The position numbers were made by a program, and so were the translations under genes. Positions 6,117 through 54,145 of a stretch of 64,000 bases of DNA are shown here, one piece after another. This DNA comes from a bacterium (GTDB lineage Bacteria > Patescibacteriota > Minisyncoccia > Phycocordibacterales > CALRBL01). Positions within the stretch are counted from its first letter, which is position 1. The number at the start of each line of letters is the position of its first letter. Location of the stretch: contig JAIYEG010000002.1 of NCBI GenBank assembly GCA_027487075.1, forward strand, positions 1,244-65,243, given 5' to 3'. The notes under the pieces are model-generated. The model did not search any database, was not told where the DNA came from, and saw only the letters and a program-made list of their open reading frames with translations.

Positions 6117-7025
6117 ATGATCTTTAGTTCATTCTTCATTGCGATTATCGGCTACGCACTCCTTGCTGTGGTGGCTATTCTCGACAAGCTCATTCTTTCA
6201 AAGGCGCTGAATACGTCTTCTTATACGTTCTATTCAAATCTCTTGTTTGGGTTTGCCTTTGTGATGTTGCCATTTGCGGAGCGTATCTCTTTAGAAGGTT
6301 TTTTGTGGTCTCTCGCATCAGGTTTGGGATTTGGCTTTGCGGCATGGGCAATGTTTATCGCGCTTGAGAAGAATGATGCAACACACATTATTCCATTTAT
6401 TGGTGCGATGACTGCAGTATGTACCTACGCACTTTCGGCGGTGGTACTTGGTGAATCGCTCACTCTTATTCAGACACTTGGTATCGTACTCTTGGTGGTT
6501 GCGAGTTTTTTGTTTGCCTACGAGCGAGATCGTGTGCGAGTGACGGGTATCAGCATGGGAGTGGTATGGGGAATTGTATCTGGATTGTTGTTTGCAATAT
6601 CACATGTCACCGCCAAAGTGGTATATGAACAGTACTCATTTGTCACTGGTTTTGCATGGACTAAGGGACTTGTTGTTCTTGTGGCACTGTGTGTATATCT
6701 CTTTGGTAAGAAAATGGGGCCAGCAAAAACAAAGCAGGTACCACATGCTGCACCTCGAGGACAACATAATAATTTTATACTTATTGCGGTTGATAAAATT
6801 GCAGCATTGCTCGGTATCGTCGCAGTACAGTATGCAATGTCTATTGGGAGTGTGACTATTGTGACGGGGCTTGTGGGACTTCAGTATGCACTCATTCTTA
6901 TCTACGCTCTTATCTTTACTACGTTTACTCCTCGTTTCTTTACCGAATATATTACGCGCAAAGAAATATTATTTGAAGGAACAGCTATTCTGCTTGTTAT
7001 TGGTGGTGCGGTATTACTTGCATAA
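6117..7025 (+). CDS. DMT-superfamily (EamA-like) transporter
   Basis: 302 aa with about 10 predicted TM helices and the duplicated EamA-like architecture. Confidence 0.55.
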   Translation: MIFSSFFIAIIGYALLAVVAILDKLILSKALNTSSYTFYSNLLFGFAFVMLPFAERISLEGFLWSLASGLGFGFAAWAMFIALEKNDATHIIPFIGAMTAVCTYALSAVVLGESLTLIQTLGIVLLVVASFLFAYERDRVRVTGISMGVVWGIVSGLLFAISHVTAKVVYEQYSFVTGFAWTKGLVVLVALCVYLFGKKMGPAKTKQVPHAAPRGQHNNFILIAVDKIAALLGIVAVQYAMSIGSVTIVTGLVGLQYALILIYALIFTTFTPRFFTEYITRKEILFEGTAILLVIGGAVLLA

Positions 7026-7030
7026 AACAT

Positions 7031-8038
7031 ATGAAAAAAGTTCCACGACATATATATCTGAAAAGAATGGGGATAGTGTTTGGCGGACTCGTGGTGGTGT
7101 ATGCATTGATGTGGATCGGATCGCTCAAGACATACCCTACTGACTTCGGTATAAGCTTCAGTCCCGAGTATGCACGTTCGCTCGGTCTTGATGCACAAGA
7201 AACCTTTGATGCTATTTTAGAAGACCTCAAGCCTACCACCGTGCGTTTGGCTGTGCCTTGGAATAAAGTAGAGCCAGAACAGGGGGTGTTTGATTATGCT
7301 GAAGTTGATAGGTTGCTTGAAAAAGCGGGAACTGCAGGAAGTAAGGTGGTACTGACGGTCGGACAAAAAGTGCCACGCTGGCCTGAGTGCTACATTCCCA
7401 CCTGGGCAGCCGCACTTCCTAAAGAAGAGCAAGAACAACAGCTTCTCAACTACGTTGCAACCACTATCAACCGCTATAAAGACAATCCTGCAATCGAACT
7501 GTGGCAAGCAGAAAATGAGGCATTCATCAACTTTCCTTTTGGTGAATGTGATGCATTCGATAGGGATTCGGTCACCAAAGAAATTGCACTTATCAGGCAG
7601 CTTGACCCGACGCGTCAGATTGTAACGACCGATAGTGGAGAATTGTCGACCTATCGCGTGGCATCACGAGAGGGTGATATTCTTGGTACGACGTTATATC
7701 GCACGACACGCGTCTCAGGAGGTTTTATTGTGCGTTATGATTGGCTCCCCCCAGCATTTTATAAGTTGAAAGCACGACTATGGGGAAATGATTATGAACA
7801 TTTTTTTGTATCAGAACTTCAGGCCGAGCCTTGGTTTGAAGGTGGCATGCCAAGCACCCTTGAGGGCTTTATGAAAGAGAAAACCTTTAGTCCAGAACGC
7901 TTTAGAGAAAATATTGCGTATGCTCACAGAGTCGGTGCATCTCGCGTTTACCTGTGGGGAGCGGAGTGGTGGTACTTTATGAAGACAAAGATTGGTGATA
8001 GTCGGTATTGGGAGGTGGCAGAAGAGCTATTTCAATAA
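7031..8038 (+). CDS. Membrane-anchored clan GH-A (TIM-barrel) glycoside hydrolase-like protein
   Basis: It has an N-terminal TM helix and an 'ENE' acid/base-type motif ('WQAENEAF'), with similarity to the GH5/GH42 N-terminal barrel. Confidence 0.45.
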   Translation: MKKVPRHIYLKRMGIVFGGLVVVYALMWIGSLKTYPTDFGISFSPEYARSLGLDAQETFDAILEDLKPTTVRLAVPWNKVEPEQGVFDYAEVDRLLEKAGTAGSKVVLTVGQKVPRWPECYIPTWAAALPKEEQEQQLLNYVATTINRYKDNPAIELWQAENEAFINFPFGECDAFDRDSVTKEIALIRQLDPTRQIVTTDSGELSTYRVASREGDILGTTLYRTTRVSGGFIVRYDWLPPAFYKLKARLWGNDYEHFFVSELQAEPWFEGGMPSTLEGFMKEKTFSPERFRENIAYAHRVGASRVYLWGAEWWYFMKTKIGDSRYWEVAEELFQ

Positions 8039-25087: not shown

Positions 25088-25218
25088 TAGGGTGAAAATA
25101 GAGAAATAAAAAACCGCCTGCCCCACAATCAGTTACGATGGGGACAGACGGCATATGCTTGTGGGGTCATTGACCTACCTCAAGCTTTGTTAAGGGTTTG
25201 GTTTGCGAAGTTATCGTG

Positions 25219-25578
25219 TCACTGGCGTGAGCTGGTGCGGTCCGATGCCGCAGGCTCGCGCACGTGCGCGATCATCACAGTGTTGCTTTCGCCGAGGTCG
25301 AAGCCGAAGCTCCCGACCCGATACCAGCAGTCAGAGACCGCCGGAGTGTCTTCCTTGAGACGCTCAGTAGCGAAACACTCACACGGTGGTGGAGGTTTCC
25401 CAGTAGAACGAATGAAGGAAAATGTGTCTGGAGGGGGCATAGGTCCGAGAGTGAGTACATCATGGTACTCAAATTCTGGAACAAGCACCTCTCCGAAATT
25501 GGCATCACATTCCTCGGGAATGACGATAACAAGAGATGGTCCGAGGGCCATCAAAACCGCGAAACGAAGAGAACTCAT
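25219..25578 (-). CDS. Small predicted secreted Cys/Pro-containing protein, hypothetical
   Basis: 119 aa with a signal-peptide-like N-terminus. It lies in a locally GC-rich segment and has a terminator hairpin downstream on the minus strand at about 25110-25150. A competing antisense ORF 25187..25597(+) exists. Confidence 0.3.
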   Translation of the reverse strand: MSSLRFAVLMALGPSLVIVIPEECDANFGEVLVPEFEYHDVLTLGPMPPPDTFSFIRSTGKPPPPCECFATERLKEDTPAVSDCWYRVGSFGFDLGESNTVMIAHVREPAASDRTSSRQ

Positions 25579-25655
25579 TGCTTGCGTACGAATGTAGCAC
25601 GATTATGAAAAATGTAAATTTTGTGGTGTGAAGACGAGAAGCATATACTTACGGT

Positions 25656-26691: not shown

Positions 26692-27234
26692 ATGACATCA
26701 CCAACACAAACAGCAATATTCGCCGGAGGATGCTTTTGGTGTACAGAGGCACTTCTCAAAGGTCTTAAGGGAGTGCTTTCGGCAGAGCCCGGCTATGTCG
26801 GCGGTTCAACACCGAAGCCGACATATGAGCAAGTATGCACGGGAAACACCGGTCACGCTGAAGCAGTGCGTATCAACTTTGATCCGAGTGTCATCAGCTA
26901 TGGTCAGCTCCTGTCGGTGTTCTTTAATACTCACGACCCGACAACGCTCAATCGCCAAGGAAATGATGTGGGTACGCAGTATCGTTCAGCGATTTTCTAC
27001 ACAAGTGATGAGCAAAAAGAAGAAGCTGAGAAACTCATCACTGAACTTAACTCAAGTGGTGCGTATGACAAGCCAGTGGTGACCGAAGTGACACCAGCAA
27101 CTGAGTTTTATGTTGCTGAAACCTACCACCACGACTACTATGAGCGAAACAAAGACAAGGCATATTGTCAGATTATTATCGAACCTAAATTAGAAAAACT
27201 TCAAAAGACTTACCATGAACTACTGGCTCGTTAA
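26692..27234 (+). CDS. msrA: Peptide-methionine (S)-S-oxide reductase
   Basis: It has the N-terminal 'GGCFWC' catalytic motif. Confidence 0.85.
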   Translation: MTSPTQTAIFAGGCFWCTEALLKGLKGVLSAEPGYVGGSTPKPTYEQVCTGNTGHAEAVRINFDPSVISYGQLLSVFFNTHDPTTLNRQGNDVGTQYRSAIFYTSDEQKEEAEKLITELNSSGAYDKPVVTEVTPATEFYVAETYHHDYYERNKDKAYCQIIIEPKLEKLQKTYHELLAR

Positions 27235-27673
27235 AAGTGAAGGGGATTGCTACTCGATTGCAGATTTGAAACGCGACAAACGCACGGCGTGGACGGGAAT
27301 TCGCAACTATCAAGCGCGCAACTTTATGAGAGACGGCATGAAGAAAGGAGATCTCGTGCTTTTTTATCATTCACAATCTGAACCGTCAGGTATCTACGGT
27401 CTTGCAAAAGTAGTGAGTGAGCCGCATCCCGACGAGACAGCGTTCGATAAAAAAGATGAGCACTATGATCCGAAATCAAAACGTGAAGCCCCAACATGGA
27501 TGTGTGTCGATCTGCAGTACGTAAAGACATACAAAGAGCCACTCAGTTTGGCGGATATAAAGCGTGACACAAAGCTCGAAGGTATGTGGGTGACACGAAA
27601 AGGAGATCGTCTGTCGGTCCAACCGGTGTCGGAGAAACATTTTAAGTGGATTGAGAAGTTGTTGAGTAAATAA
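27215..27673 (+). CDS. EVE-domain (PUA-like) protein
   Basis: 'NYWLVKSEGDCYSIADL...ARNFMRDGMKKGDLVLFYHS' matches the EVE/Thy28 fold. Confidence 0.7.
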   Translation: MNYWLVKSEGDCYSIADLKRDKRTAWTGIRNYQARNFMRDGMKKGDLVLFYHSQSEPSGIYGLAKVVSEPHPDETAFDKKDEHYDPKSKREAPTWMCVDLQYVKTYKEPLSLADIKRDTKLEGMWVTRKGDRLSVQPVSEKHFKWIEKLLSK

Positions 27674-27771: not shown

Positions 27772-28383
27772 TCATTCACACACTCCCTCCGCCCACAACC
27801 CTCGCTTTTCGCGCTGTGCTTCTTTCTCCGCCGCCTTAAACTCAGCCTGATACTTGTAAGGGATCTTATTGTAGGTGTATTCGTGCGCGTATCCTTGCTC
27901 GATGAGCACTTTGTTGAAGTTTGTGCCGTCTTCAAGGATGATGTAGCCAAGGTCGCGACCGTACTTGTCTGGGCCCGGATTGCGCTCATCGCTCTCTATG
28001 CGCACGTGCTTTCCGGCGAGCATCATTTTGGTGAATTCAGACGCTTCTTTACCAAAACACTGCACGGGTTTTCGTGGGTCTACCGTCTCTGGTGTATCAA
28101 CACCGATCATGCGCACGGTGACGGGCTTGCAATCACGACTTACCGTGATGGTGTCGCCATCACTCACCTCGACGACTTCGAGTGAGCTTGTTGCGCTTGT
28201 AGTCGATGCCGCACCTTCTTCGATGATGCAGGTATCAAAATACATCGTCTTCTTGATGTTCTTGTTGAATGGACCAAACACCTCTTTCTGAAGTGATCCA
28301 TCGGGATCAAAAAAGACCACGAGTAATACAAAAAGACAAGCGAGGAGGGTAGAAATAAGCTTCTTTGCGTGCTTTTGGGGCAT
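27772..28383 (-). CDS. Membrane-anchored thermonuclease (SNase-like)
   Basis: It has an N-terminal TM helix and the SNase motifs 'VSDGDTI', 'VRMIGVDTPE' and 'DKYGRDLGYI'. Confidence 0.75.
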   Translation of the reverse strand: MPQKHAKKLISTLLACLFVLLVVFFDPDGSLQKEVFGPFNKNIKKTMYFDTCIIEEGAASTTSATSSLEVVEVSDGDTITVSRDCKPVTVRMIGVDTPETVDPRKPVQCFGKEASEFTKMMLAGKHVRIESDERNPGPDKYGRDLGYIILEDGTNFNKVLIEQGYAHEYTYNKIPYKYQAEFKAAEKEAQREKRGLWAEGVCE

Positions 28384-28443
28384 CTTGCTTATGATACGAC
28401 AAACCGCGTATAATGGACACATTAGTAATAAGATCGAAATAAA

Positions 28444-28986
28444 ATGAACTCTACAGACAATAACAATAAGACCGCAGGACAGCAGATGGTGTTCGACAAG
28501 TACGTAGCGATTGCGCTCGTGGTGGGTATCGTCGCTGGTTTTATCATTGGTAACAGCGTAGGAAGTAACAGAGCGAAGATGAGTAACACCGCATCAAGCA
28601 CCGATAAAATGATGCTCGCAAGCTCAACTGATTCAATGATGGAAGCGAATAACGAATCTTCAATGATGATGAGTGGTGATTGGATTAGTGTTGAAGAACA
28701 AAAGGCGGGTAATATGGTAAAAGTTTCTAAGCTTACACTCGATGGTACCTATTGGGTAGCAGTTCGTGACGATCACAGTACTACCAAGAATCCCTACGTA
28801 CTTGGTGCAAAGAAACTCATGAAGGGAACATACACTGATGAGTCGATCTATGTATCACGCGCAACTGAAGCAGGAAAGAGCTACGAAGTAGTGCTCTTCA
28901 AAGATGCTCCAGACTTCAACTACAGCGCTTCAATGCTCATCAAGGATGGGGATCATCCAAAGGGTGCAACCTTCAAGGCTAACTAG
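28444..28986 (+). CDS. Membrane-anchored Met-rich protein, hypothetical. It is the first gene of the ABC/FN3 operon.
   Basis: It has one TM helix, then a Ser/Met-rich linker ('DKMMLASSTDSMMEANNESSMMMSGDW') and a beta-rich domain of about 100 aa. Its stop is 9 bp before ABC gene 1. Confidence 0.4.
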   Translation: MNSTDNNNKTAGQQMVFDKYVAIALVVGIVAGFIIGNSVGSNRAKMSNTASSTDKMMLASSTDSMMEANNESSMMMSGDWISVEEQKAGNMVKVSKLTLDGTYWVAVRDDHSTTKNPYVLGAKKLMKGTYTDESIYVSRATEAGKSYEVVLFKDAPDFNYSASMLIKDGDHPKGATFKAN

Positions 28987-28994
28987 CCTTACGC

Positions 28995-30695
28995 ATGCTT
29001 GAGGCCCTAAAGCCCTACCGACTTCATATTAGTGCGATAGCCCTTTTGTCCACTGTGGCAAATGGGCTTTCGTTATATTTCCCTAAAAAGACGGGAGAGT
29101 ATATTGATATGTATCAAAGTGGTACGGGAGATGTGTGGCTCTTTTTGTCGGTGCTTGGTGGGATTGCGGTCGCAATACTCGTCGCAACACTCCTCCAGGC
29201 ATTTATTTCAGTGTATGCATCAGAGCGTATTGCGTTCGATATCCGCCAACTCCTCATTAAGACATTAAAAGATCGGTCATTCTCGTATATTCGCGACATG
29301 TCGGGCGGACGTCTCATTACGGTGCTCACCTCTGATGTTGATGCAATTAAAAATCTAGTGGCTTCAGGTATTGCATCGCTTCTTATGTCGGCAATTACGC
29401 TCGTCGGTGCCATTATCTTTCTTCTCACTATCAACTGGAAGATGGCACTTCTCACACTGTCGGTGATGCCGTTTATTCTGATTGTCTTCGCACTGGTATT
29501 TCGTCGGCTGGGGCCGCTCTTTGGTATGAGTCAAGCGAATCTTGATGGTATTAACCGTGTGATTAATGAAAGTATCGTCTCCGCACCGCTCGTGCGTGTT
29601 CTGAATGCAAAGCAAGCAGAAGTGCAAAAGTTTGATGTGGTGAATAAGCGAAGTAACGATATTGGTATTCAGATTGCGACATTTTTTGCGGCACTGATTC
29701 CGGTTATTACATTGCTTGGTCAGGGTGCGGTGCTTGTGGTGTTGTGGTTCGGAGGAAAGAATGTGGTGGCAGGTACGTTGAGTTTGGGAGAGATGAGTGC
29801 GTTCTTTGCGTATACATCAGCGTTTATTTGGCCATTTTTTGTTTTGTCATTTGCGAGTACGTTTATATCTCGCGCTCAGGTATCGTGGAAGCGCATTAAA
29901 GAAGTGCTCGATAGTGATGACAAGGCTGTCGCGAAAGAAGCACATGAGGGAACGCACCGAAGTGAGCTCAAAGGAGAGATTGTATTCAAGAATGTCACCC
30001 TTCGCTATGGTGAAAAAGAAATTCTCAAAAATATTTCATTTGCCATCAAACCTCACACCAAGACGGCGATTCTTGGTCCTACCGGAGCCGGAAAAACAGA
30101 GCTGGTGTATCTTCTTGCGGGGCTTGCCACACCGACTGAGGGATCAATCCATATTGATGGTGTGTCGGTGAGTGAGTGGGATCAAGAGGCGCTACTTTCA
30201 AAGATGGGGATCGTGTTTCAGGACAGTATTGTGTTCAATGCATCGCTCAAAGAAAATATTTTGTTCAAACACGGTGCTGATGAACGTCGACTCACCTCTG
30301 CACTTGAAGTGGCAGAGCTATCAGGACTCATCGATGAATTACCACAGGGAATCGATACTGATGTGAGTGAGCGCGGTACTAGTCTTTCTGGAGGGCAGAA
30401 GCAACGCCTCATGCTGGCGCGCGCACTCGCAATCAATCCCTCAGTCTTGCTTCTTGATGACTTTACGGCGCGTGTCGACGCAGGTACCGAAGCACGCATT
30501 CTCTCAAATATACGGCACGCGTTCCCGAACCTAACACTTATTTCGATCACCCAAAAGATTGAACCTATTAAGGATTATGATCATATCATCGTACTTATGG
30601 AGGGAGAGTTGATTGCACAAGGAAGACATGACGAGCTCATCAAAAACTCGCTTGAGTACCAGCAAATATATGCGTCACAACAAACCGCATCATAA
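28995..30695 (+). CDS. ABC exporter ATP-binding/permease subunit (type I exporter half-transporter)
   Basis: It has a 6-TM domain plus an NBD with Walker A 'GPTGAGKT', signature 'LSGGQKQR' and Walker B 'LLLDD'. Confidence 0.85.
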   Translation: MLEALKPYRLHISAIALLSTVANGLSLYFPKKTGEYIDMYQSGTGDVWLFLSVLGGIAVAILVATLLQAFISVYASERIAFDIRQLLIKTLKDRSFSYIRDMSGGRLITVLTSDVDAIKNLVASGIASLLMSAITLVGAIIFLLTINWKMALLTLSVMPFILIVFALVFRRLGPLFGMSQANLDGINRVINESIVSAPLVRVLNAKQAEVQKFDVVNKRSNDIGIQIATFFAALIPVITLLGQGAVLVVLWFGGKNVVAGTLSLGEMSAFFAYTSAFIWPFFVLSFASTFISRAQVSWKRIKEVLDSDDKAVAKEAHEGTHRSELKGEIVFKNVTLRYGEKEILKNISFAIKPHTKTAILGPTGAGKTELVYLLAGLATPTEGSIHIDGVSVSEWDQEALLSKMGIVFQDSIVFNASLKENILFKHGADERRLTSALEVAELSGLIDELPQGIDTDVSERGTSLSGGQKQRLMLARALAINPSVLLLDDFTARVDAGTEARILSNIRHAFPNLTLISITQKIEPIKDYDHIIVLMEGELIAQGRHDELIKNSLEYQQIYASQQTAS

Positions 30696-30699
30696 CAAT

Positions 30700-32457
30700 A
30701 TGAAAAATTATCACCTCACCAATGACATACAAAACAATGAAGCGTATCTCAAACGTGTATTTCGTAGTATTAAAGAGATAGGCTCGTATCTCAATAAAAA
30801 ATCATTTTTTACAGCGGTATTTCTTGCCTTATTGACCTCAGCTGCTGCGGTGCTGACACCATACCTTCTTGCTCATGCGATTGATACCTATATTGCGAAG
30901 AATGATCTTGCGGGGCTTTTACGTCTCATCTTCCTTCTTGCAGTGGTGTATGTGGTATCTTCGGTGACGCAGTACTTCCAGCAGATGATTATGGGGCGCG
31001 CCAGCATGAAAGCGTTGTATAAGATACGCGGAGTGATATTTGCGAAGATTCAGTCATTACCGATTGCCTTTTTTAATCAAAATAAAGCAGGAGACTTAAT
31101 GTCGCGTATCAATAATGACTCCGACAAGCTTAGTCAATTTCTCTCAGAAAGTATTCTCCGCTTTACCGGAAGTGTATTTACTCTTTTGGGTATTGCGATT
31201 TTTGTACTGTATTTGAACTGGAAACTTGGGCTTGTATTACTTTCTTCTACGGTCTTTTTGGTGATCGTGACAAGATTCGTGTCGCCACAACTTGAGAAAG
31301 CAAACAAGCAAAGCTCTGGCGCGCTTGGGCAGTTTACCGCAGGGGTGTCTGAGCAGCTTTCAAACTTTAAAGCGATCATCGCATTCAATCGACGTAACTT
31401 CTTTGATGAATTCCTGAATAGGCTTAATAGTGAAAATTACATGCGTTCGCGTAAGGCAGGCTTTCTTAATCAGATATTCTCACCACTGTATGACTTTGCT
31501 GGCTATATCGCCCAGGCAGTCGTACTAGTGTATGGACTGTATCTTATAAGTCAGGGAGAACTTACGGTAGGTCTTCTTATTGGTTTTCTTACCTTCGCTC
31601 TCCGTTTTTACGATCCACTCCGCTTTATCGCAAACATCTTCGGGGAAATTCAGGTATCGCTTGCGTCGTGGGGACGCATTAAAGATATTTTAACACTCGA
31701 TTCGGATATTGTGACACTTCCCGCACAAGCTGCACAAGGTGTGACGCCACCACCTCCTTTAGTGCGTCTTGCATTCAAAGAGGTGAGTTTTACATACGGT
31801 GAGGATCATGTGGTGCTCGACAAGGTGTCGTTTGCACTTGAAAAAGGGAAGACGTATGCGCTTGTTGGTCCAACAGGAGGAGGAAAGTCGACGATTGCGA
31901 GTCTTATGGCACGTCTCTACGACCCAACAGATGGTGTCATCGAATGGGAAGGGCGAGACATGCGCACACTCACTGAAGCAGAACGTGCCGAGCGGATTGG
32001 GGTAATTCTTCAGGAGCCGTACCTTTTTTCGGGTACGGTAGAGGAAAATATCCGCTATGGTAACGCGAAGGTGCATGACAAAACCGAAATCACTGATACC
32101 GAATTGCTTGGATTGCTGTCACGCCTACCAGATGGTTTGGCAACTAAGGTAGAAACAGGAGGAGAATCAATCTCCATCGGACAGCGTCAGCTTATTTCGT
32201 TCGTGCGTACCGTGCTTCGCAAGCCAGACCTCCTTATTCTCGACGAGGCGACTGCAAATATCGATACAGTGACCGAATCCGCACTGCAAGAACTTATCAA
32301 CTCACTTCCACCGTCTACTACGAAAGTGATCATTGCACATCGTCTCAATACCATCACGCAGGCAGATGAAATCCTTTTTGTGCGTGGTGGGAAGGTGCAA
32401 CGAGTATCAAATGAGAAGGAGGTGCTCAAGCTTCTCACCGCAGAATCTGCCAGCTAA
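30700..32457 (+). CDS. ABC exporter ATP-binding/permease subunit, the heterodimer partner
   Basis: It has a TM domain plus an NBD ('GPTGGGKST', 'ISIGQRQL', 'LILDEAT'). It starts 5 bp after the partner stop. Confidence 0.85.
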   Translation: MKNYHLTNDIQNNEAYLKRVFRSIKEIGSYLNKKSFFTAVFLALLTSAAAVLTPYLLAHAIDTYIAKNDLAGLLRLIFLLAVVYVVSSVTQYFQQMIMGRASMKALYKIRGVIFAKIQSLPIAFFNQNKAGDLMSRINNDSDKLSQFLSESILRFTGSVFTLLGIAIFVLYLNWKLGLVLLSSTVFLVIVTRFVSPQLEKANKQSSGALGQFTAGVSEQLSNFKAIIAFNRRNFFDEFLNRLNSENYMRSRKAGFLNQIFSPLYDFAGYIAQAVVLVYGLYLISQGELTVGLLIGFLTFALRFYDPLRFIANIFGEIQVSLASWGRIKDILTLDSDIVTLPAQAAQGVTPPPPLVRLAFKEVSFTYGEDHVVLDKVSFALEKGKTYALVGPTGGGKSTIASLMARLYDPTDGVIEWEGRDMRTLTEAERAERIGVILQEPYLFSGTVEENIRYGNAKVHDKTEITDTELLGLLSRLPDGLATKVETGGESISIGQRQLISFVRTVLRKPDLLILDEATANIDTVTESALQELINSLPPSTTKVIIAHRLNTITQADEILFVRGGKVQRVSNEKEVLKLLTAESAS

Positions 32458-32536
32458 TCGGCAGTGCTTGTTATCCACAGAAGCATGATTTCTGCTTCAT
32501 TGTGTCTTCATTTTGGTCTATACTTAAAGTATATAT

Positions 32537-35500
32537 ATGAAAAAACATGCTGTGCTCGGATCAGGCATCCTTTTTATTCTTTCGGGTATTATTGCATTAG
32601 TAGCATTCTCTGGTGTGGTATCTGCGGCAACACTTGCGACACCTGTGGTTACCACAAAGACAAGTGCATTATGTGGTGGATCAATAGAGCTTTCGCTCAC
32701 GCGTCCGGTTGGTAGTGCAACAAGTTTTGCAATATATCGTGCTCCATCTACAGGTGGAGCACTTACCCTCATCGCCACAGTCCCCTCAACATCGGGGACA
32801 TTTTTGTATACAGATAGAAATCTCACTCCATCAACTTTATATTCTTATAGGGTACAAGCAAGAAGTAGTAAGCTTACTTCAGCCCAGAGCGCAACTAAAA
32901 GTGCAATGTCATCAGCAAGGTGTCCGGACGCACCAGTTAATCCCGTTAACCCAGTGCCACCACCTCCACCAGAAATTAACCTGAGCAAAGTAGAGGGTTG
33001 TGCCGATAATGCTCTAGTTAATGTTGCAATTTATGATACAACAAGAGTGTATGAACGTGCGTCAACCACTTTTCAAATCTACCGAGCAGTTGCTGGCTCG
33101 TCGTCGTATACGCTCATAGGGTCAATACCTTACGAGAGCTATATCACACATTATCGAGATAGGTCTTTTGTACCTGGTACTAACTATAGTTACTATGTCG
33201 TGGCAACGCTCAGAGGTCTTGCATCATCACAGGGTAGTCCAAAATCAGTGACTGCTCCCGCGGTATGTCAAAAAATTGAGACACCAACTAACTTCAAAGT
33301 GTCACCAGCACCTTCGTGTGGTAATAGAGTAACCCTTACTTGGGATGCGCCGAAGAACGGACGTGGGTACAATTATCAAATATATCGTTCACTGTATCCG
33401 CAAGATGACAATCGTTTCCAAGTGGTTGTAGAGAATAGTGTAAACCTTATACCATACAGTACTTCGACATACTCTTTTACTCTTAGTACTCCGCCAACTG
33501 GTACCGTCTACTATAAAATTAGGGCGACGGATCCAACGAATGCCAAACAACCCGCATCTGATTTCACCCCAATTGTAGGATCTGTCGGGTCAGGAAAATG
33601 TTTAACAGCCCCTGTTGTTAGGGCCGCAACTGCTTCATCGTGTGGTGGTAAAACAAACGTAAGCTGGAATGCAATTGCTGGAGCAACAGGATATAGAGTT
33701 TACGCCTCACCAGTATCTACAGGTGCTTATAAGGCCATTGGAGTGGTGACAAGTACTACTTTTGTTGCGAGTTCAGCGCCGCGCACCATACAGTATTATA
33801 AAGTTGCTCCTATGATTGGAGTGTCAGAGTCACCAACAAATTCAGTAGGGGTAAGTGCGCCCTCGTCTATTGAGTGCTCTACCGGTCAGACATTACAACT
33901 ACGTTCTAGTGGATCGCTCGAACAGTGCTCATTTTCTACACGACTCTCTTGGGATACCGTTCCTGGGGTAGCTGAATATCGATTGTATCGAGTCATTGGG
34001 CCAAATTCTGCAGTAGTATATACAGGTGATCAAACCAGCTTTGATGTTATGACATATTTTGGGGATTATTCTTTCTATGTTGTGTATGTGGATGATACAG
34101 GTAAAGAAAATGGTAAAAGTAATATTGTCAGAGTCCCTTCATCAAATTTTAATTGCCCACTGACGACGAACGTTTCTTTGGGAGGATGGAATGAAAGTGT
34201 CTATGAACCATACATTGAGGCGGCTTCTGGGATTGATGAGTCTTGGTCGGGAGATGGAGATACAAATGGAAATGGATACTGTGAATTTGGAGAGCGATGT
34301 TATCCTTCAGCAGAGGGTGAGTCAGATAATAATGTATTTGATAATTCCGGATTAAATTCTTCTCTTGATAGAGTTGGAGATACCGATATTGGTATTGCTC
34401 CGATCGCGCTTAACCCATCGATACGTAGTAGTGGGATTGATAGAGGTAAGCGATATCTTAACTTCATTGCAGATTTTGGAACAGAACCATCGAGACAGCT
34501 TCCACCTGATTGTTTTGAATCGATGACATCTTACAAAGATAGTAAGGGAAGATATCTTCCATCGGCTACTTCTTCGCGTATGATTGAAGATGCAACTACT
34601 AAGTTTGATTTAGGTGGTAATAATAAATTTTTTGGAGTACTCATGAAGCTTGATACAGGCAAATGTAAAGATAAGACACTTGCTCAACAACTCACTACAT
34701 TCTCGTACCCACCTTCTCAGCCTTTCTCTGATAAAGCAACGTTTAACAATAATGTGATGCTCACTGATGATAGTATTCGATTAAATTATAATGCATATGA
34801 TTGGGGTTCGGGAACCTTTGCAAACTTTCCACAAGGAGTAAGTGCTGATATTCCTTGGGCAGACAAATATCAATTTGGAGTTAAGAGTTTCAAGGCACGT
34901 TATTCTGGTGAATTAACTCAAAAGTATATTTCCGGATACACTGATTATGAGCCTGATGGTACAGAAAAGTGGATAAAAACAGAAGGTAGTCTTTCAATGA
35001 CCGTTGCAGGGCTTACGAATCTTACTGAGGTTCTTGAACCAGGTAATGCTCAAGAAGAGTTAAGGAAAACAGGTATATTTAAAGGTACTGGTGTGGGTAG
35101 TGTGTCAGTTACATACCCCAAGAATTTTGTTAGTTGTGAGAGTTCATCATACTCGGGTACGTTTCCAGTTGAAATCACTGTAGATCTTACTAAAGCAGAA
35201 AAAGTTGCGGCGGGTAATTCAGTTTATCCATATACGGTAGATTTTACTGCGCCGATTAACGTAAAGGGTAGCGCTGTAGTTAAGGAAATTGAACGATGTG
35301 ATGGTGAAAGCGAACGGGCATATGAGCATTATCCTGAATTCAGCACCCAAAATAATTCAAATCCGAAAAATAATATACCTTATTATTCAGCACAAGGTAC
35401 TATAGGTGGTAAAACTACTGAGCTCCGCTTTGTTAAGAAGGCGGTTGATGGTTATCCTTGGACAGATTGTCCTCCTCCATGGAGTGGTTCCGCAGAGTGT

Positions 35501-35725
35501 CCAGTGACAACAACCTCATTTAATTTCACTATCGATGTTGTTCCTGAAAGATGCTACACCTATGCACTTGACGGTGTTGCAAAGTATAACGATGATTGTA
35601 CCCCTACTCTCGATAATCAAGGTTTGTCGAAAGAAGAATCAAAAAACTGGCTTGCTCTCATATGGGAAAACATGAAAAGCTTTGTGGGATTTGCTGCAGG
35701 TTTAATCATTAATATATTGTCATGA
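32537..35725 (+). CDS. Giant secreted protein (1062 aa) with five FN3-like repeats, a Cys-rich unknown C-terminal domain and a C-terminal hydrophobic anchor
   Basis: It has a signal peptide. There are five repeats of about 90 aa, each starting with a Cys-containing strand and ending in a 'Y(R/Q)(I/V)YR' motif. The C-terminal segment of about 500 aa is of unknown function. The last 22 aa are hydrophobic. The gene is AT-richer than its neighbours. Confidence 0.7.
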   Translation: MKKHAVLGSGILFILSGIIALVAFSGVVSAATLATPVVTTKTSALCGGSIELSLTRPVGSATSFAIYRAPSTGGALTLIATVPSTSGTFLYTDRNLTPSTLYSYRVQARSSKLTSAQSATKSAMSSARCPDAPVNPVNPVPPPPPEINLSKVEGCADNALVNVAIYDTTRVYERASTTFQIYRAVAGSSSYTLIGSIPYESYITHYRDRSFVPGTNYSYYVVATLRGLASSQGSPKSVTAPAVCQKIETPTNFKVSPAPSCGNRVTLTWDAPKNGRGYNYQIYRSLYPQDDNRFQVVVENSVNLIPYSTSTYSFTLSTPPTGTVYYKIRATDPTNAKQPASDFTPIVGSVGSGKCLTAPVVRAATASSCGGKTNVSWNAIAGATGYRVYASPVSTGAYKAIGVVTSTTFVASSAPRTIQYYKVAPMIGVSESPTNSVGVSAPSSIECSTGQTLQLRSSGSLEQCSFSTRLSWDTVPGVAEYRLYRVIGPNSAVVYTGDQTSFDVMTYFGDYSFYVVYVDDTGKENGKSNIVRVPSSNFNCPLTTNVSLGGWNESVYEPYIEAASGIDESWSGDGDTNGNGYCEFGERCYPSAEGESDNNVFDNSGLNSSLDRVGDTDIGIAPIALNPSIRSSGIDRGKRYLNFIADFGTEPSRQLPPDCFESMTSYKDSKGRYLPSATSSRMIEDATTKFDLGGNNKFFGVLMKLDTGKCKDKTLAQQLTTFSYPPSQPFSDKATFNNNVMLTDDSIRLNYNAYDWGSGTFANFPQGVSADIPWADKYQFGVKSFKARYSGELTQKYISGYTDYEPDGTEKWIKTEGSLSMTVAGLTNLTEVLEPGNAQEELRKTGIFKGTGVGSVSVTYPKNFVSCESSSYSGTFPVEITVDLTKAEKVAAGNSVYPYTVDFTAPINVKGSAVVKEIERCDGESERAYEHYPEFSTQNNSNPKNNIPYYSAQGTIGGKTTELRFVKKAVDGYPWTDCPPPWSGSAECPVTTTSFNFTIDVVPERCYTYALDGVAKYNDDCTPTLDNQGLSKEESKNWLALIWENMKSFVGFAAGLIINILS

Positions 35726-36477
35726 AACGAATAACAAAACTTAGCATCATCTTGGTATTTGTTGTATGTATATTTGCAGCAGCAGGGTATCTTCAAGGTG
35801 CTTCAAAAAAATCGATAGTAGGTCAAATCGATGATCCTGCGTTGCATAAGGCTCTTCTTGAGTGGAGAATGAATAAAAATTATATTACTTACTATGGGAC
35901 AGAGTGGGATCCAACCAGAGGCACATCAACAATCACAGGATTACCATTTAGAGATCACAAATTAATTCCAGAGAATCCTGTTACTAAAATAAAATATCCT
36001 CGCTCAATTACGATGTACTGTGCATTTCCTATGGCTGAGTTTCTACCGCGGAATCTAATGAAATATTGGAATCATGTTACCCCAACGCAAGACCCTGAGG
36101 GAAAACAAATTGTAGGGGGGGTTAATCTTGTTAGTTATGTGGTAGGACGATATTATTACATGGAAGTAACTCGTCTTACGCCACCTGAGTCTGACTTGGA
36201 TCCACAACCTGAGAGCGATAAAGTTTATGCAATTATCGATGATCGTGGTCCTGACTATGCGGGAACACTTGATTGTTCTCCTGCGGTATTGAGAACATTG
36301 GGGGTTAAATCAATAAAAATTAAGGATAGAAATATGAATAGTAAAGATCTTGATAATAGAGTAAGTGCACGTCTTGTACCAAAAGATAGGTTTATGAGTG
36401 GTGAGTATGATGCTGCGTTTAAGTTCCAAAAAATTATTTACCCTGTAAGGAGAGAAGAGATTAACGTGAATCAGTGA
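35722..36477 (+). CDS. RlpA-like double-psi beta-barrel (DPBB/3D-domain-like) protein, membrane-anchored
   Basis: It has an N-terminal TM or signal segment. 'YAIIDDRGPDYAGTLDCSPAVLRTLG' resembles the RlpA/expansin 'DRGP...IDLS' core. It overlaps the giant gene by 4 bp. Confidence 0.45.
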   Translation: MKRITKLSIILVFVVCIFAAAGYLQGASKKSIVGQIDDPALHKALLEWRMNKNYITYYGTEWDPTRGTSTITGLPFRDHKLIPENPVTKIKYPRSITMYCAFPMAEFLPRNLMKYWNHVTPTQDPEGKQIVGGVNLVSYVVGRYYYMEVTRLTPPESDLDPQPESDKVYAIIDDRGPDYAGTLDCSPAVLRTLGVKSIKIKDRNMNSKDLDNRVSARLVPKDRFMSGEYDAAFKFQKIIYPVRREEINVNQ

Positions 36478-36484
36478 TATCAAA

Positions 36485-36949
36485 TCACACCCCCTCCGCA
36501 TTGCGGTAGGGGGTGGTTGAGGTGATTTTTGGTTTCTTGTGAAGAGCGTGCAGGAGTATGAATCCCGTGCGCACCTCACCGGTCTTGGTGTTGGTAATAG
36601 TGCATTCCGCCACCACAATGACTTCGCCAACAGAAGGACTGTCATCAAAAGCGAATGACTTTTTGAGGGGCATCATCCGGTCATTGATGAACGCGGTTAC
36701 ATCGCCGTTGCGTGCAACAACGAGTGCGGTCGTGGTGTGGAGCTTGATGATTCGATAAGAAAGAGAATCTTTCCGATCGGGCGGGTTGAGGAACTCCGTG
36801 TAAGCGCTCTCGTGGAGTACTATGGGAGGTACATCAAACTCCATGCCAGGAATGAGTTCGACTGTCGGTGTTGCTTCGGTGGCGAACGACGCCGAAGTAG
36901 TTGTCAGCATCGCGACAACAGCGCAAAAGATGGAAAGAGCAGTATTCAT
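36485..36949 (-). CDS. Predicted secreted protein, hypothetical
   Basis: 154 aa with a signal peptide. It is convergent with the DPBB gene. A GC hairpin (CCCCCTCCGCA/TGCGGTAGGGGG) overlaps its 3' end. Confidence 0.4.
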   Translation of the reverse strand: MNTALSIFCAVVAMLTTTSASFATEATPTVELIPGMEFDVPPIVLHESAYTEFLNPPDRKDSLSYRIIKLHTTTALVVARNGDVTAFINDRMMPLKKSFAFDDSPSVGEVIVVAECTITNTKTGEVRTGFILLHALHKKPKITSTTPYRNAEGV

Positions 36950-36970
36950 TCATCATAATTATACCATTTT

Positions 36971-38512
36971 TTATCTCAAAATCAAGCTCTTGCCCGTCAT
37001 GAAAGCAGGCTTATCTAGAGCCATCAAACCAAGCACCGTAGGAGCAAGGTCGGCAATTGTTCCAGACGCTGCAATGTGCGTAGCTGTTTTGTCGGAGCCA
37101 GCAAGAATGCAGGGAACAGGATTAATGGTGTGTGCAGTGTGCTTTTTGCCAGTCTCCTGATCAATATTTACTTCAGCATTGCCGTGGTCGGCGGTGACGA
37201 TAGCAACGCCTCCACGCGCGATAAGTGCATCGACGACACGGCCGAGCTGTGTGTCTGTTTCTTCGATGGCTTCGATGATGGCGGGAACATTTGCGGTATG
37301 TCCGACCATGTCAGGGTTTGCAAAGTTAATGAAAATAAAGTCAGTGCCGGCAGCAATTTCTTCGAGCGCTTTATCCGCTATGGCTTCTGCACGCATCTTT
37401 GGTGCGAGGTCGTGTGTAGCAACATCTTTGCGGCTATCAAGAAGAATGTGTTTCTCTTTTTCGTAGGGAGTTTCAACACCGCCATTCAAAAAGTATGTAG
37501 CATGAGGGAATTTTTCAGTCTCCGCGATGTGTGCTTGGCTCTTGCCTGCGTGCGCGATTTCTTTTGCGAGAGTGGTCTCAATAGCGAGCTTTGGAAACGC
37601 AATCTGCACGTGTTCTGCATCTGCTTTGTCGTATTCGGTGAGGGTGACATAGCACAAATTGCGTGATGTTTTCTGGTCACTGATTTTCTTTGAGAGCATG
37701 CGTGCCCGGTCAGAACGGAAATTGAAAAAGAAAATACCGTCATTGTCTTCGACTTTGTATGATGCGCCATTGCTGTCGAGAAAGACAATTGGCTCGATAT
37801 GTTCATCGAGCATTCCAGCAGCATAGAGTTCTTCGAGGACTTCTGATGGAGTCTGACCGCTTTTGGTGTGGCCTTTGCCGTGAAAGATGGCGTCTTCTGC
37901 CTTTGCGAGACGATCCCAGTTGTTGTCACGGTCCATGGCATAGAAACGGCCGGACATGGTAGCGATAAAGCCGATACCCACTTCTTCAAGCACGCTTTCA
38001 ATTTCTTTGAGATACGATGCTGCGCTTTGTGGAGGCACATCTCGACCATCGGTGAAGACATGAAGAGCGAGTTTTTCGACGCCAGCATTCTTTGCAGCTT
38101 TGAGAAATGCAATAAGATGATCTTGATGGCTATGCACTCCTCCTTTAGATACAAGACCCTTCACATGAAGTGTCGAATTATATTCCTTCACATGATTGAA
38201 AAGGGAAATAAATGCGGGATTCTGTGCAAATGCACCACTGTCGATTGCTTTTGCAATACGCACGAGGTCAGTATCAAGGGCGCGTCCTGCACCGATGGTG
38301 GTGTGGCCGATTTCTGAGTTGCCCATCTGACCATCGGGAAGTCCTACTGCAAGTCCTGATGCTTCAAGAAGTGTGTGTGGGTAGGTATTCCAATAGCGAT
38401 CAAAATTCGGGGTTTTTGCCTGAGCAACGGCGTTGTCCTTGCTGTCTTCGCGGTATCCCCAGCCATCGAGCACAATGAGGGCGGTCTGAGTCGCAGTTTG
38501 TGTTTTTGTCAT
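36971..38512 (-). CDS. gpmI: 2,3-bisphosphoglycerate-independent phosphoglycerate mutase
   Basis: 513 aa. It has 'LIVLDGWG', 'MGNSEIGHTTIGAGR' and 'TADHGN' iPGM motifs. Confidence 0.9.
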   Translation of the reverse strand: MTKTQTATQTALIVLDGWGYREDSKDNAVAQAKTPNFDRYWNTYPHTLLEASGLAVGLPDGQMGNSEIGHTTIGAGRALDTDLVRIAKAIDSGAFAQNPAFISLFNHVKEYNSTLHVKGLVSKGGVHSHQDHLIAFLKAAKNAGVEKLALHVFTDGRDVPPQSAASYLKEIESVLEEVGIGFIATMSGRFYAMDRDNNWDRLAKAEDAIFHGKGHTKSGQTPSEVLEELYAAGMLDEHIEPIVFLDSNGASYKVEDNDGIFFFNFRSDRARMLSKKISDQKTSRNLCYVTLTEYDKADAEHVQIAFPKLAIETTLAKEIAHAGKSQAHIAETEKFPHATYFLNGGVETPYEKEKHILLDSRKDVATHDLAPKMRAEAIADKALEEIAAGTDFIFINFANPDMVGHTANVPAIIEAIEETDTQLGRVVDALIARGGVAIVTADHGNAEVNIDQETGKKHTAHTINPVPCILAGSDKTATHIAASGTIADLAPTVLGLMALDKPAFMTGKSLILR

Positions 38513-54064: not shown

Positions 54065-54137
54065 GGGCCCCTAGCTCATCTGGTAGAGCGCCTCATTTGC
54101 ACTGAGGAGGTGAGCGGTTCGAGTCCGCTGGGGTCCA
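54065..54137 (+). tRNA. tRNA-Ala (anticodon UGC)
   Basis: It folds as a cloverleaf. The acceptor stem GGGCCCC/GGGGTCC carries the diagnostic G3:U70 pair. The anticodon stem-loop CCTCA-TTTGCAC-TGAGG gives anticodon TGC. The T-arm is GGTTCGAGTCC. CCA is not encoded. Confidence 0.85.
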
Positions 54138-54145
54138 CAAAATGA

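Follow-up and report, generated by a model that had tools for sequence, protein, structure and literature searches.

We focus here on a cluster of five genes on one strand of a 64,000-nucleotide stretch of bacterial DNA (the window), which probably consists of two evolutionarily independent units that point the same way by chance: an ordinary ABC exporter and a previously undescribed surface gene pair, made up of a 1062-aa protein (gene 4, the giant) and gene 5. The first-pass annotation had read all five genes as a single dedicated surface system, and three comparisons do not bear this out. First of all, relatives of the giant, of gene 5 or of the convergent gene 6 occur at none of 80 related ABC loci; the co-occurrence of the ABC pair with FN3 giants had been set beforehand as the point on which the proposal could fall, and the exporter genes stand without the giant and gene 5 at every one of the 80. 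Second, in the nearest relative, L002 (a Saccharibacteria MAG), the block in common with the window comprises SNase, DUF7282, ABC-A and ABC-B genes and is followed there by mraZ and rsmH, synteny breaking exactly at the ABC-B stop codon. Third, the sole homologues of genes 4 and 5 (P0029 and P0030, respectively) are adjacent on L082, in the same order and with a 4-nt spacer, and have M14 peptidase genes and an EVE-domain gene as neighbours; no ABC gene is present in this locus, of which 2.1 kb is visible upstream of the giant's homologue.

Layout of the locus

27772-28422, reverse: SNase homologue, membrane-anchored (Pfam SNase, 5e-31), divergent from gene 1
28444-28986, forward: gene 1, 180 aa (ORF)
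28995-30695, forward: gene 2, ABC half-transporter A, 566 aa (ORF, Pfam)
30700-32457, forward: gene 3, ABC half-transporter B, 585 aa (ORF, Pfam)
32458-32536, forward: spacer of 79 nt, AT-rich, coinciding with the synteny break relative to L002
32537-35725, forward: gene 4, the giant, 1062 aa (ORF)
32640-34171, forward: FN3 array of the giant, five repeats, Cys pairs 46/129, 155/244, 261/355, 369/447 and 464/540
34259-34294, forward: EF-hand-like loop of the giant, DTNGNGYCEFGE, 12 residues (aa 575-586), with Cys582 and Cys588 conserved at its flanks
35024-35218, forward: best-conserved core of the giant's orphan C-terminal domain, aa 830-894
35642-35722, forward: amphipathic/hydrophobic C-terminal tail of the giant, aa 1036-1062
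35722-36477, forward: gene 5, 251 aa (ORF)
36238-36303, forward: gene 5 motif DDRGP-x5-GTLDCSPAVLRTLG (aa 173-194), similar to the latter half of an RlpA/expansin double-psi beta-barrel (DPBB)
36485-36949, reverse: gene 6, a 154-aa secreted orphan, convergent with gene 5

All five genes reported at first pass are recovered as ORFs on one strand and at the same coordinates. The spacers measure 8, 4, 79 and -4 nt; the positive values had been given as 9, 5 and 80, each 1 too high, and the -4 was correct. We place the start of gene 3 at ATG 30700 because homologue alignments begin at residue 3. A chimeric assembly of the giant gene, raised earlier as a possible objection, can be set aside: over the ABC-B/giant, FN3/C-terminal and giant/gene 5/gene 6 junctions the sequence is matched at 100% by two Logan contigs that were assembled separately, and the giant's one homologue has an identical architecture. 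The 79-nt spacer holds two weak hairpins that fold no better than shuffles (z = -1.05), and neither its sequence nor its folding yielded a convincing terminator or promoter; one transcript might conceivably serve all five genes.

The ABC exporter and its upstream neighbours

Genes 2 and 3 are, as first proposed, two half-transporters without a peptidase or C39 domain, each consisting of ABC_membrane and ABC_tran (for gene 2, a TMD at 5e-41 and an NBD at 2e-30 in Pfam). Their description as a heterodimeric exporter is also upheld, with asymmetric motifs and one degenerate ATP site. Gene 2 has Asp where the catalytic Glu is expected in Walker B (VLLLDD-F) and Gln instead of His in the H-loop (ITQK), together with a canonical LSGGQ signature; gene 3 has a canonical Walker B (LLILDE) and H-loop (AHR) and a deviant signature, ISIGQ. 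The motifs make up a consensus ATP site, formed by Walker A/B and the H-loop of subunit B with LSGGQ of subunit A, and a degenerate, non-hydrolytic site, formed by the substituted Asp and Gln of subunit A with ISIGQ of subunit B. TM287/288 and LmrCD/BmrCD have the same asymmetry, with Asp-for-Glu and Gln-for-His in one subunit and a deviant signature in the other.

The closest bacterial solved structures to gene 2 are heterodimers of the TM287/288, TmrAB, EfrCD and BmrCD type, and the PDB matches of gene 3 likewise fall among these; both genes match TM287/288-type chains at E values of 1e-70 to 1e-91, identity to the solved members being modest. Like genes 2 and 3, the type IV (ABCB-like) exporters TM287/288 (Thermotoga maritima), BmrCD, EfrCD and TmrAB are encoded by adjacent genes, each with a six-helix TMD fused to an NBD, and TM287/288-type exporters share with them the lack of a peptidase domain and the asymmetric motifs. 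The 80 related loci come from Bacteroidota, Saccharibacteria, Peregrinibacteria, Acidobacteriota and others; all carry the ABC genes, both halves adjacent and in A-then-B order in 78, among unrelated flanking genes. Judging from its family, the pair would use alternating access to remove small amphipathic compounds, lipids or peptides from the cell and would not export a protein of 1062 aa. It appears, from sequence, to be an ordinary, housekeeping heterodimeric exporter of the TM287/288-BmrCD type and an independent unit, which gene 1 loosely accompanies.

Gene 1 is the Met-rich membrane protein that it had been taken for, with 13 Met among 180 aa, 8 of them inside 37 residues. A single N-terminal TM helix (aa ~14-41) is followed by a linker rich in Met and Ser, and then by a DUF7282 domain (aa 81-157; Pfam 1e-6, 29.3 bits with the cut-off at 27). 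Among the related ABC loci its orthologues are found only in L002, where the gene lies next to the exporter genes and its product does not keep the Met-rich linker, and in L003, where it lies 2.4 kb upstream with xseA/xseB and a nitroreductase-like gene in between. A DUF7282 membrane protein adjacent to the exporter or within 2.4 kb upstream of it is seen only here and in the two nearest relatives, and has not been described in known TM287/288-type exporters. Beyond gene 1, the SNase gene, which has a 47% identical orthologue at the corresponding position in L002, is the left end of the block common to the window and L002; it is context, outside the five genes.

The giant protein

From its N-terminus, the giant runs through a signal or signal-anchor (aa 1-30) and five FN3 repeats (aa ~35-545) into an orphan C-terminal domain (aa 541-1062). 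The Sec-type signal ascribed to it is seen as a hydrophobic N-terminal signal, which P0029 also has; the giant thus has no need for an ABC exporter, and would leave the cytoplasm via Sec. The five FN3-like repeats do open with a Cys, and each has a closing Cys too, so that two Cys and one Tyr are invariant in the repeat alignment. The Pfam fn3 match is borderline (24.2 bits against a cut-off of 25), and PF00041 is carried by 21 homologues; P0029 has seven Cys-bracketed repeats against five in the giant. We infer that the giant displays its five FN3 domains as a stalk, with a probable disulfide staple in each, and that the orphan C-terminal domain, probably stabilised by Ca2+, sits on it as a head.

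The C-terminal half proved as uncharacterised as first described, its 522 aa having no family match. It is not Cys-rich, as had been claimed, since its 1.9% Cys equals that of the FN3 half, nor does it end in the hydrophobic anchor once assigned to it: the tail has just 13-15 hydrophobic residues, below the 19-residue TM criterion (Kyte-Doolittle 2.3 over 13 aa, 1.3 over 19 aa), and its counterpart in P0029 is less hydrophobic. The conserved core, aa 830-894, follows the pattern TEVLEP..RKTGIFKG..SV..YP..C..PVEI..D..KAE in the alignment with P0029, and is the sole C-terminal stretch that an exhaustive HMMER search matched beyond the gene's own fragment. The EF-hand-like loop is kept in P0029 as DDNGNGVCDAGE, weakly matches an engineered Ca-binding loop (PDB 6fgo) and is predicted to bind Ca2+; since dockerins carry EF-hand-like Ca2+ loops, it recalls those of dockerins.

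By sequence, the FN3 half is closest to FN3-array proteins fused to peptidoglycan hydrolases or proteases (P0004, P0007, P0010, P0014, P0006 and P0020). Six of nine relatives scanned join the array to a domain that degrades wall or protein (Amidase_3, Glucosaminidase, Amidase_6, Peptidase_C1 or S8), mostly N-terminal to it, P0010 having an additional C-terminal Glucosaminidase. Unlike these FN3-hydrolases the giant has no recognisable enzyme domain, a putative wall-active domain being located on the separate gene 5. Unlike in the giant, the FN3 repeats of three proteins (P0002, P0004 and P0007) are without the Cys pair; the Cys-bracketed subtype together with the orphan C-terminal domain is found in one other protein only, P0029. 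In Saccharibacteria, an FN3-containing surface protein of Southlakia epibionticum, SEML1_0890, is essential for epibiotic growth, and the authors speculate that FN3 proteins of this kind target glycans of the host cell, either to adhere to them or to degrade them; among the essential proteins listed there is also one with a dockerin domain (PMC10633639). Compared by description only, SEML1_0890 and the giant are both exported FN3 proteins in a Saccharibacteria-type genome.

Gene 5 and its DPBB-like motif

Gene 5 consists of an extracytoplasmic domain behind an N-terminal TM anchor (aa ~4-25). Its first-pass assignment as an RlpA/expansin-like DPBB protein with a 'DRGP' motif stands as far as the motif is concerned; family matches are missing and the profile-profile matches are local only. 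RlpA, a septal-ring lytic transglycosylase, and the bacterial expansin EXLX1 share with it the block V-x-[VI]-x-D-[DR]-G-P ... [LI]-D-[LC]-S-x-A-x3-L-G, which we take to hold catalytic or groove Asp residues in those two proteins. Like RlpA, gene 5 is predicted to be tethered at the outer face of the membrane; unlike RlpA and EXLX1, it has no Pfam DPBB_1 match, a large insertion between the halves and no SPOR or expansin D2 domain, and the first-half motifs (SWYG...TASGE...AAH) were not recovered by alignment. The DPBB fold is putative, the two AlphaFold predictions having given pLDDT values of only 35 and 34.

A competing view, to which we give a substantial chance that stops short of even, is that the DRGP...LDCS motif is fortuitous or convergent and that gene 5 is not a DPBB protein at all, perhaps an assembly or anchoring factor for the giant. 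The protein has no Pfam, NCBIfam or PDB match even at E=10, and a plain RlpA HMM gives it 1.2 bits, which is noise level. With hhalign, the match to 10 RlpA domains (P 2.8e-4, probability 41%) is confident over 32 columns only and that to 7 expansin D1 domains (P 4e-3, probability 8.5%) over 56, and neither global nor greedy mode places the first-half motifs on the expected residues. Against this, the same hhalign scores exceed 60 of 60 column-shuffled controls for both of these independent DPBB subfamilies (z about 5.8), in agreeing register; the expression [DN]RGP..[ILVM]D[LVICM]S, in 1.5 Mb of six-frame translation, retrieves nothing but gene 5, P0030 and a single genuine RlpA; and the motif block is invariant between gene 5 and P0030, which are otherwise 31% identical (E 1e-19). 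On the DPBB reading, gene 5 would place a divergent RlpA/expansin-like domain that binds or cleaves glycan at the outer face of the membrane.

Genes 4 and 5 as a probable module

The start codon of gene 5 and the stop codon of gene 4 overlap in the sequence ATGA, a sign that the two may be coupled in translation. The giant had been called AT-richer than its neighbours and indeed is (GC3 0.280, z = -2.6); among 53 genes in the window (mean 0.467, sd 0.072), it and gene 5 (0.275, z = -2.7) are the only GC3 outliers. The family has two members in about 15 billion proteins, which makes 'conserved pair' a statement of n=2. The EVE gene of L082 is 62% identical to that of the window, as against about 27% for the giant and 31% for gene 5, so that the pair is diverging far more rapidly than the genes around it. 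Genes 4 and 5 would form a lineage-restricted, fast-diverging cell-surface module whose exposure is predicted, and whose products together probably bind or remodel cell-wall or host-surface glycan; a candidate role of the two in adhesion or host contact is plausible.

The deviating GC3, the left edge at the synteny break and the extreme rarity of the family could also be explained by a foreign cassette, recently acquired from an AT-richer donor or mobile element and carried as cargo, not as a long-resident module. We consider this unlikely. The homologous pair on L082, in a different genome, shows the same relative GC3 dip, which is more readily explained by a composition intrinsic to the genes, or by their fast evolution, than by two recent transfers independent of each other. 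Flanking direct or inverted repeats were not found, and the only tRNA gene of the window (54065-54138) lies about 17 kb off. Gene 5, gene 6 and the giant's C-terminal half have no PHROG match (gene 1 has a weak one, E 0.057), and one viral_contigs motif scan gave a chance match only.

Least of all do we favour a single envelope system of all five genes, in which the ABC heterodimer would export, lipidate or service the giant or its ligand and gene 5 would act on the wall for it, by opening or binding it: five co-directional genes with short spacers, no clear terminator between ABC-B and the giant, and products that are all membrane or extracytoplasmic speak for it, but it is rendered highly improbable by the three comparisons given at the outset, by the codon composition, which differs between the ABC genes and genes 4 and 5, and by the N-terminal signal of the giant itself; nor was a C39 peptidase domain, a membrane-fusion protein or any further part of a type I secretion system found.

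Membership of gene 6 in the module of genes 4 and 5 is doubtful. Its GC3 is high, at 0.59, unlike that of the pair, and homology to its L082 counterpart is not detectable (alignment z = 0.76); that counterpart is a secreted protein of similar size in matching position and orientation.

Organization and integrity of the locus

The locus holds five co-directional open reading frames at the place where the first-pass annotation had put them, and its gene-level description is largely correct. Upstream of gene 1 lies a divergent nuclease gene, and gpmI and eno, like the small gene 6, converge on the five genes from downstream.

Genes at the locus (window coordinates)
27772-28422, divergent, membrane-anchored staphylococcal-nuclease gene upstream of gene 1
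28444-28986, gene 1, ORF of 180 aa, DUF7282 protein
28995-30695, gene 2, ORF of 566 aa, ABC-A
30700-32457, gene 3, ORF of 585 aa from ATG, ABC-B
32537-35725, gene 4, ORF of 1062 aa, giant FN3 protein
35722-36477, gene 5, ORF of 251 aa, DRGP-motif protein
36485-36949 (-), gene 6, small secreted orphan of 154 aa, converging from downstream

The start of gene 3 was taken as ATG and not as the upstream TTG of the ORF listing; alignments with homologues begin at residue 3 of the protein so started. The spacers measure 8, 4 and 79 nt, in place of the 9, 5 and 80 first reported, and are followed by a 4-nt ATGA overlap of genes 4 and 5 that stands as reported. Consensus scans and folding of the 79-nt spacer for a terminator or promoter gave only weak hairpins, with folding no better than that of shuffles. 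A recognisable Shine-Dalgarno sequence is absent from the 20 nt upstream of all five start codons (28423-28443, 28987-28994, 30696-30699, 32517-32536).

It had also been considered that the giant gene might be a mis-assembled chimera. This is unlikely, since two Logan contigs (run SRR30952591) match the window at 100% over 31910-34856 and 35032-37046, spanning the ABC-B/giant, FN3/C-terminal and giant/gene 5/gene 6/gpmI junctions, and since the same architecture recurs in P0029, the only homologue of the giant's C-terminal half.

A self-contained heterodimeric ABC exporter

The products of genes 2 and 3 make up an asymmetric heterodimeric ABC exporter, and the two genes are conserved as a self-contained pair. 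Both subunits are half-transporters in which a transmembrane domain is fused to a nucleotide-binding domain (Pfam ABC_membrane at 5e-41 and 1e-53, ABC_tran at 2e-30 and 6e-28). As first described, they lack a peptidase or C39 domain: none was found with Pfam or NCBIfam, and the proteins align to peptidase-containing NCBIfam models only from about position 130-220. In gene 2, the signature LSGGQ is canonical, the Walker B motif (VLLLDD-F) has Asp in place of the catalytic Glu, and the switch His is replaced (ITQK); in gene 3, LLILDE and AHR are canonical and the signature (ISIGQ) is deviant. This asymmetry gives the dimer one consensus and one degenerate ATP site, a hallmark of TM287/288, LmrCD and BmrCD, and the same degenerate or deviant residues are seen in the orthologues at the two closest ABC-pair loci, L002 (a Saccharibacteria MAG) and L003. 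Identity between the two halves is only 27%, and their nearest bacterial solved structures are TM287/288, TmrAB, EfrCD and BmrCD. With fused domains, a conserved adjacent pair and a degenerate site, they belong to the heterodimeric ABCB-type (type IV fold) exporter class; neither gene reaches an NCBIfam equivalog cut-off, the best models being MsbA-related at 312-315 bits against cut-offs of 602-780. By analogy with its family, the exporter would handle small amphipathic substrates, lipids or peptides. Export of the giant by a type I secretion or bacteriocin-type ABC system was rejected, as the pair has no C39 domain, no MFP-type domain occurs among the five genes and two flanking genes scanned, and the giant has an N-terminal hydrophobic signal.

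The first-pass annotation had read genes 1-5 as a single dedicated envelope system. Gene 3 was scanned against one genome per species (GTDB representatives), and 80 loci were kept with flanks of up to 10 kb. An A-type gene lies directly 5′ of the B-type gene in 78 of these, the remaining two being cut by contig ends; the hosts include Bacteroidota, Saccharibacteria, Peregrinibacteria, Acidobacteriota and others, and the genes flanking the pair vary from locus to locus. When the FN3 half, the C-terminal half, gene 5 and gene 6 were used as tblastn queries, no match was obtained in any of the 80 loci. The annotation had itself named an ABC pair without giant or DPBB genes in most relatives as the outcome that would count against it, and this is what the comparison returns. 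In L002, where ABC identity to the window is 62%, the gene 1 orthologue adjoins the pair and the common block runs nuclease (-), DUF7282, ABC-A, ABC-B, followed by mraZ, rsmH, an ftsL-like gene and a PBP gene; synteny with the window stops exactly at the ABC-B stop. The 80 loci and this break in synteny thus do not support one dedicated five-gene system. The ABC pair is ordinary, and for annotation the comparison guards against mistaking a generic, phylum-spanning exporter for a dedicated secretion system on account of its adjacency to a giant surface gene.

Gene 1 scores 29.3 bits with Pfam DUF7282 (PF23951), for which the gathering score is 27 bits, and the match (E 1e-6) covers 79 of the 112 profile positions; no literature on this family was found. 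Among the 80 loci its orthologues occur only in L002 and in L003, where it lies 2.4 kb upstream of the ABC pair with xseA, xseB and a nitroreductase-like gene between. The methionine richness noted for this protein resides in a linker at aa 44-80 (28573-28683), with 8 Met in 37 residues and runs MM and MMM, which resembles Cu(I)-binding methionine motifs. A role as a metal site was dropped: the linker is absent from the L002 orthologue and is thus probably not a conserved functional site.

Genes 4 and 5 as a linked pair

Genes 4 and 5, on the other hand, form a separate, linked and rapidly evolving pair of extracytoplasmic proteins. First of all, they differ in composition. Among the 53 non-nested ORFs of at least 150 aa that served as the GC3 baseline for the window (mean 0.467, sd 0.072), the only outliers are gene 4 (0.280, z = -2.6) and gene 5 (0.275, z = -2.7), so that the AT-richness first noticed in the giant gene holds for gene 5 likewise. 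Gene 4 is low in both halves (0.296 and 0.262); values of 0.44-0.48 place genes 1-3 within the ordinary range, and at 0.59 gene 6 is high.

Second, the two genes recur together elsewhere. An exhaustive HMMER search with the C-terminal 522 aa of the giant against 1.84 billion cluster representatives returned only a fragment of the gene itself and P0029, a protein of 1242 aa with the same architecture, comprising an N-terminal signal and seven FN3 repeats with the giant's cysteine bracketing; an NGNG-Cys loop, an RKTGIFKG core and a similar amphipathic C-terminal tail are also common to both. On its 10.6-kb contig, L082, which carries no ABC gene, P0029 is followed after 4 nt by P0030, a 286-aa protein and the only homologue of gene 5 (31% identity, E 1e-19). 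Around the pair lie genes for two M14 peptidases, for a small secreted protein in convergent orientation and for an EVE-domain protein, and the GC3 of the pair (0.43-0.44) is below theirs (0.53-0.74). The pair is about 27-31% identical between the two loci, as against 62% for the neighbouring EVE gene; order and tight linkage have thus been kept while the pair diverges far faster than its surroundings.

The gene 5 family gained no member from a word-indexed profile search of 5.8 billion protein clusters, from a JGI metagenome scan with automatic patterns or from a scan of metagenome contigs with a hand-made GTLDCSPAVLR pattern, and one viral-contig pattern match was rejected as chance, lying outside any ORF. 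No flanking repeats that might mark mobile-element boundaries were found. The neighbourhoods of two other FN3 giants, P0003 and P0009, hold paralogous FN3 arrays and contain no ABC pair and no relative of gene 5. The giant and gene 5 are an undescribed, very rare family pair.

The EVE-domain gene (window 27215-27673 (+), L082 7310-7762 (+)) is near the giant pair in both contigs, immediately downstream of it in L082 and 4.9 kb upstream of it in the window, beyond the nuclease/DUF7282/ABC block. This placement suggests that a rearrangement joined the ABC block to the giant pair.

Architecture of the giant protein

The giant begins with a hydrophobic signal or signal-anchor (aa 1-30), and its N-terminal half is an FN3 array of tandem units of about 90-100 aa. 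The Pfam fn3 score of the giant, 24.2 bits, falls just under the cut-off of 25, and that of P0029 is 44 bits; 21 homologues match the FN3 half only, most of which carry PF00041, and six of the nine FN3 homologues scanned join the array to peptidoglycan hydrolases or proteases. Five aligned repeats share a Y-x-[IV]-Y-R motif and, as first reported, each opens with a conserved Cys, seven residues before the strand-B Trp position; a second Cys just past the last strand proves equally invariant (pairs 46/129, 155/244, 261/355, 369/447 and 464/540). FN3 topology brings the end of strand G to the pole that also carries the A-B turn, which makes one intradomain disulfide per repeat plausible. The repeat cysteines are missing from the three generic FN3 homologues inspected over their whole length, P0002, P0004 and P0007.

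The C-terminal 522 aa match no family in Pfam, NCBIfam, PDB or PHROGs. The PDB profile search gave only a weak match to an EF-hand-like loop, and the sole interpretable feature of this half is a conserved 12-residue EF-hand-like loop, DTNGNGYCEFGE, with conserved flanking cysteines. To call this half Cys-rich was an overstatement, with Cys at 1.9% here as in the FN3 half, and the proposed C-terminal anchor amounts to a hydrophobic stretch of only 13-15 residues, with a still weaker tail in P0029.

Does gene 5 carry a double-psi β-barrel?

Gene 5 had been assigned an RlpA/expansin-like DPBB on the strength of its DRGP motif. The motif stands, within a block of 22 residues that does not vary between gene 5 and P0030 apart from an insertion after DRGP in the latter, and so does the motif of the second psi-loop, D-R-G-P ... 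[IL]-D-[LC]-S ... L-G, with its conserved Asp residues, which is present and invariant in both proteins. A library match to the DPBB does not: no hit was obtained in Pfam (PF03330 or relatives), NCBIfam or PDB up to E=10, nor in PHROGs, and a home-made RlpA HMM scored gene 5 at 1.2 bits, which is noise level. Profile-profile comparison by hhalign gave local matches to ten verified RlpA domains (P 2.8e-4, probability 41%) and to seven annotated expansin D1 domains (P 4e-3, probability 8.5%), both in the same register and with the conserved Asp residues aligned. The scores, 30.1 and 24.3, respectively, exceed those of 60/60 column-shuffled controls (means 12.7 and 12.2, maxima 22.0 and 20.9), and a regular expression for the motif, run on 1.5 Mb of six-frame translation, matched gene 5, P0030 and one true RlpA and nothing else. 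In the first half of the domain, colinear look-alikes are visible by eye (TYYG, GTSTITG and YCAFP..LP for W-Y-G, T-A-S-G-E and A-A-H-x-x-L-P), and neither hhalign nor HMMER aligned these first-half motifs with a positive score. AlphaFold2 reached pLDDT 35.4 from the single sequence and 34.3 from a two-sequence alignment with the only homologue, an N-terminal transmembrane helix being the only confident part of both models. On these motif and profile comparisons, the balance tips slightly towards a DPBB-like domain in gene 5.

A possible surface apparatus

The residual interest of the locus lies in genes 4 and 5, in which an FN3 stalk with a head domain that has no detectable relatives is coupled to a possible wall-active DPBB protein. 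The giant would be exported by Sec and may form a disulfide-stapled FN3 stalk bearing a Ca2+-stabilised orphan head; gene 5 would be a membrane-tethered module that binds or cleaves glycan, and together they may act on cell-wall or host-surface glycan. If the pairing is functional, the two proteins would be candidates for a device of host contact or wall remodelling; with a family of two, this is a lead, not a result. The unusual essential genes of cultured Saccharibacteria include some for surface proteins with FN3, VCBS or dockerin domains, which have been speculated to target host glycans, and the few non-housekeeping genes that epibiotic growth requires include some for exported FN3 proteins (PMC10633639). 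On the fullest reading, a rare Saccharibacteria-like lineage would possess in genes 4 and 5 a surface apparatus of two proteins not described before: a disulfide-stapled FN3 stalk of variable length with a novel Ca2+-dependent head, and a highly divergent enzyme of RlpA/expansin type, tethered to the membrane, that loosens or cuts cell-wall glycan of the host or of the cell itself where the two make contact. The very fast divergence of the pair would then reflect an arms race with the host surface. We regard this reading, taken jointly, as improbable.

Further observations

In L082 (178-1960), the homologous giant gene is directly preceded by two M14 zinc-carboxypeptidase genes in tandem, an arrangement seen once. 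The M14 family includes murein-peptide carboxypeptidases, and these genes are a possible second link to the cell wall.

Gene 6 and its L082 counterpart (6760-7194 (-), 144 aa) are small secreted proteins that converge on the 3′ end of gene 5 or its homologue, and the GC3 of both is unusually high (0.74 in L082) beside the low-GC3 pair. Homology between them is not detectable (alignment z = 0.76); position is thus conserved without conservation of sequence, and gene 6 was rejected as a conserved third member of the family. Gene 6 has no match in Pfam, NCBIfam, PHROGs or PDB.

Finally, a gene-free gap of 568 nt (25088-25655) separates helicase-like and MsrB-like genes, with GC rising locally to 0.54 and, on both strands, only overlapping ORFs. 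Rfam gave no match, either at gathering score or at E<=1; the gap holds no tRNA or tmRNA and has no blastn match in the retrieved loci. The minus strand folds at -160.9 kcal/mol (z = -4.5, 0/100 shuffles as good) and the plus strand at z = -2.5, and the gap is a candidate for an unclassified structured RNA.
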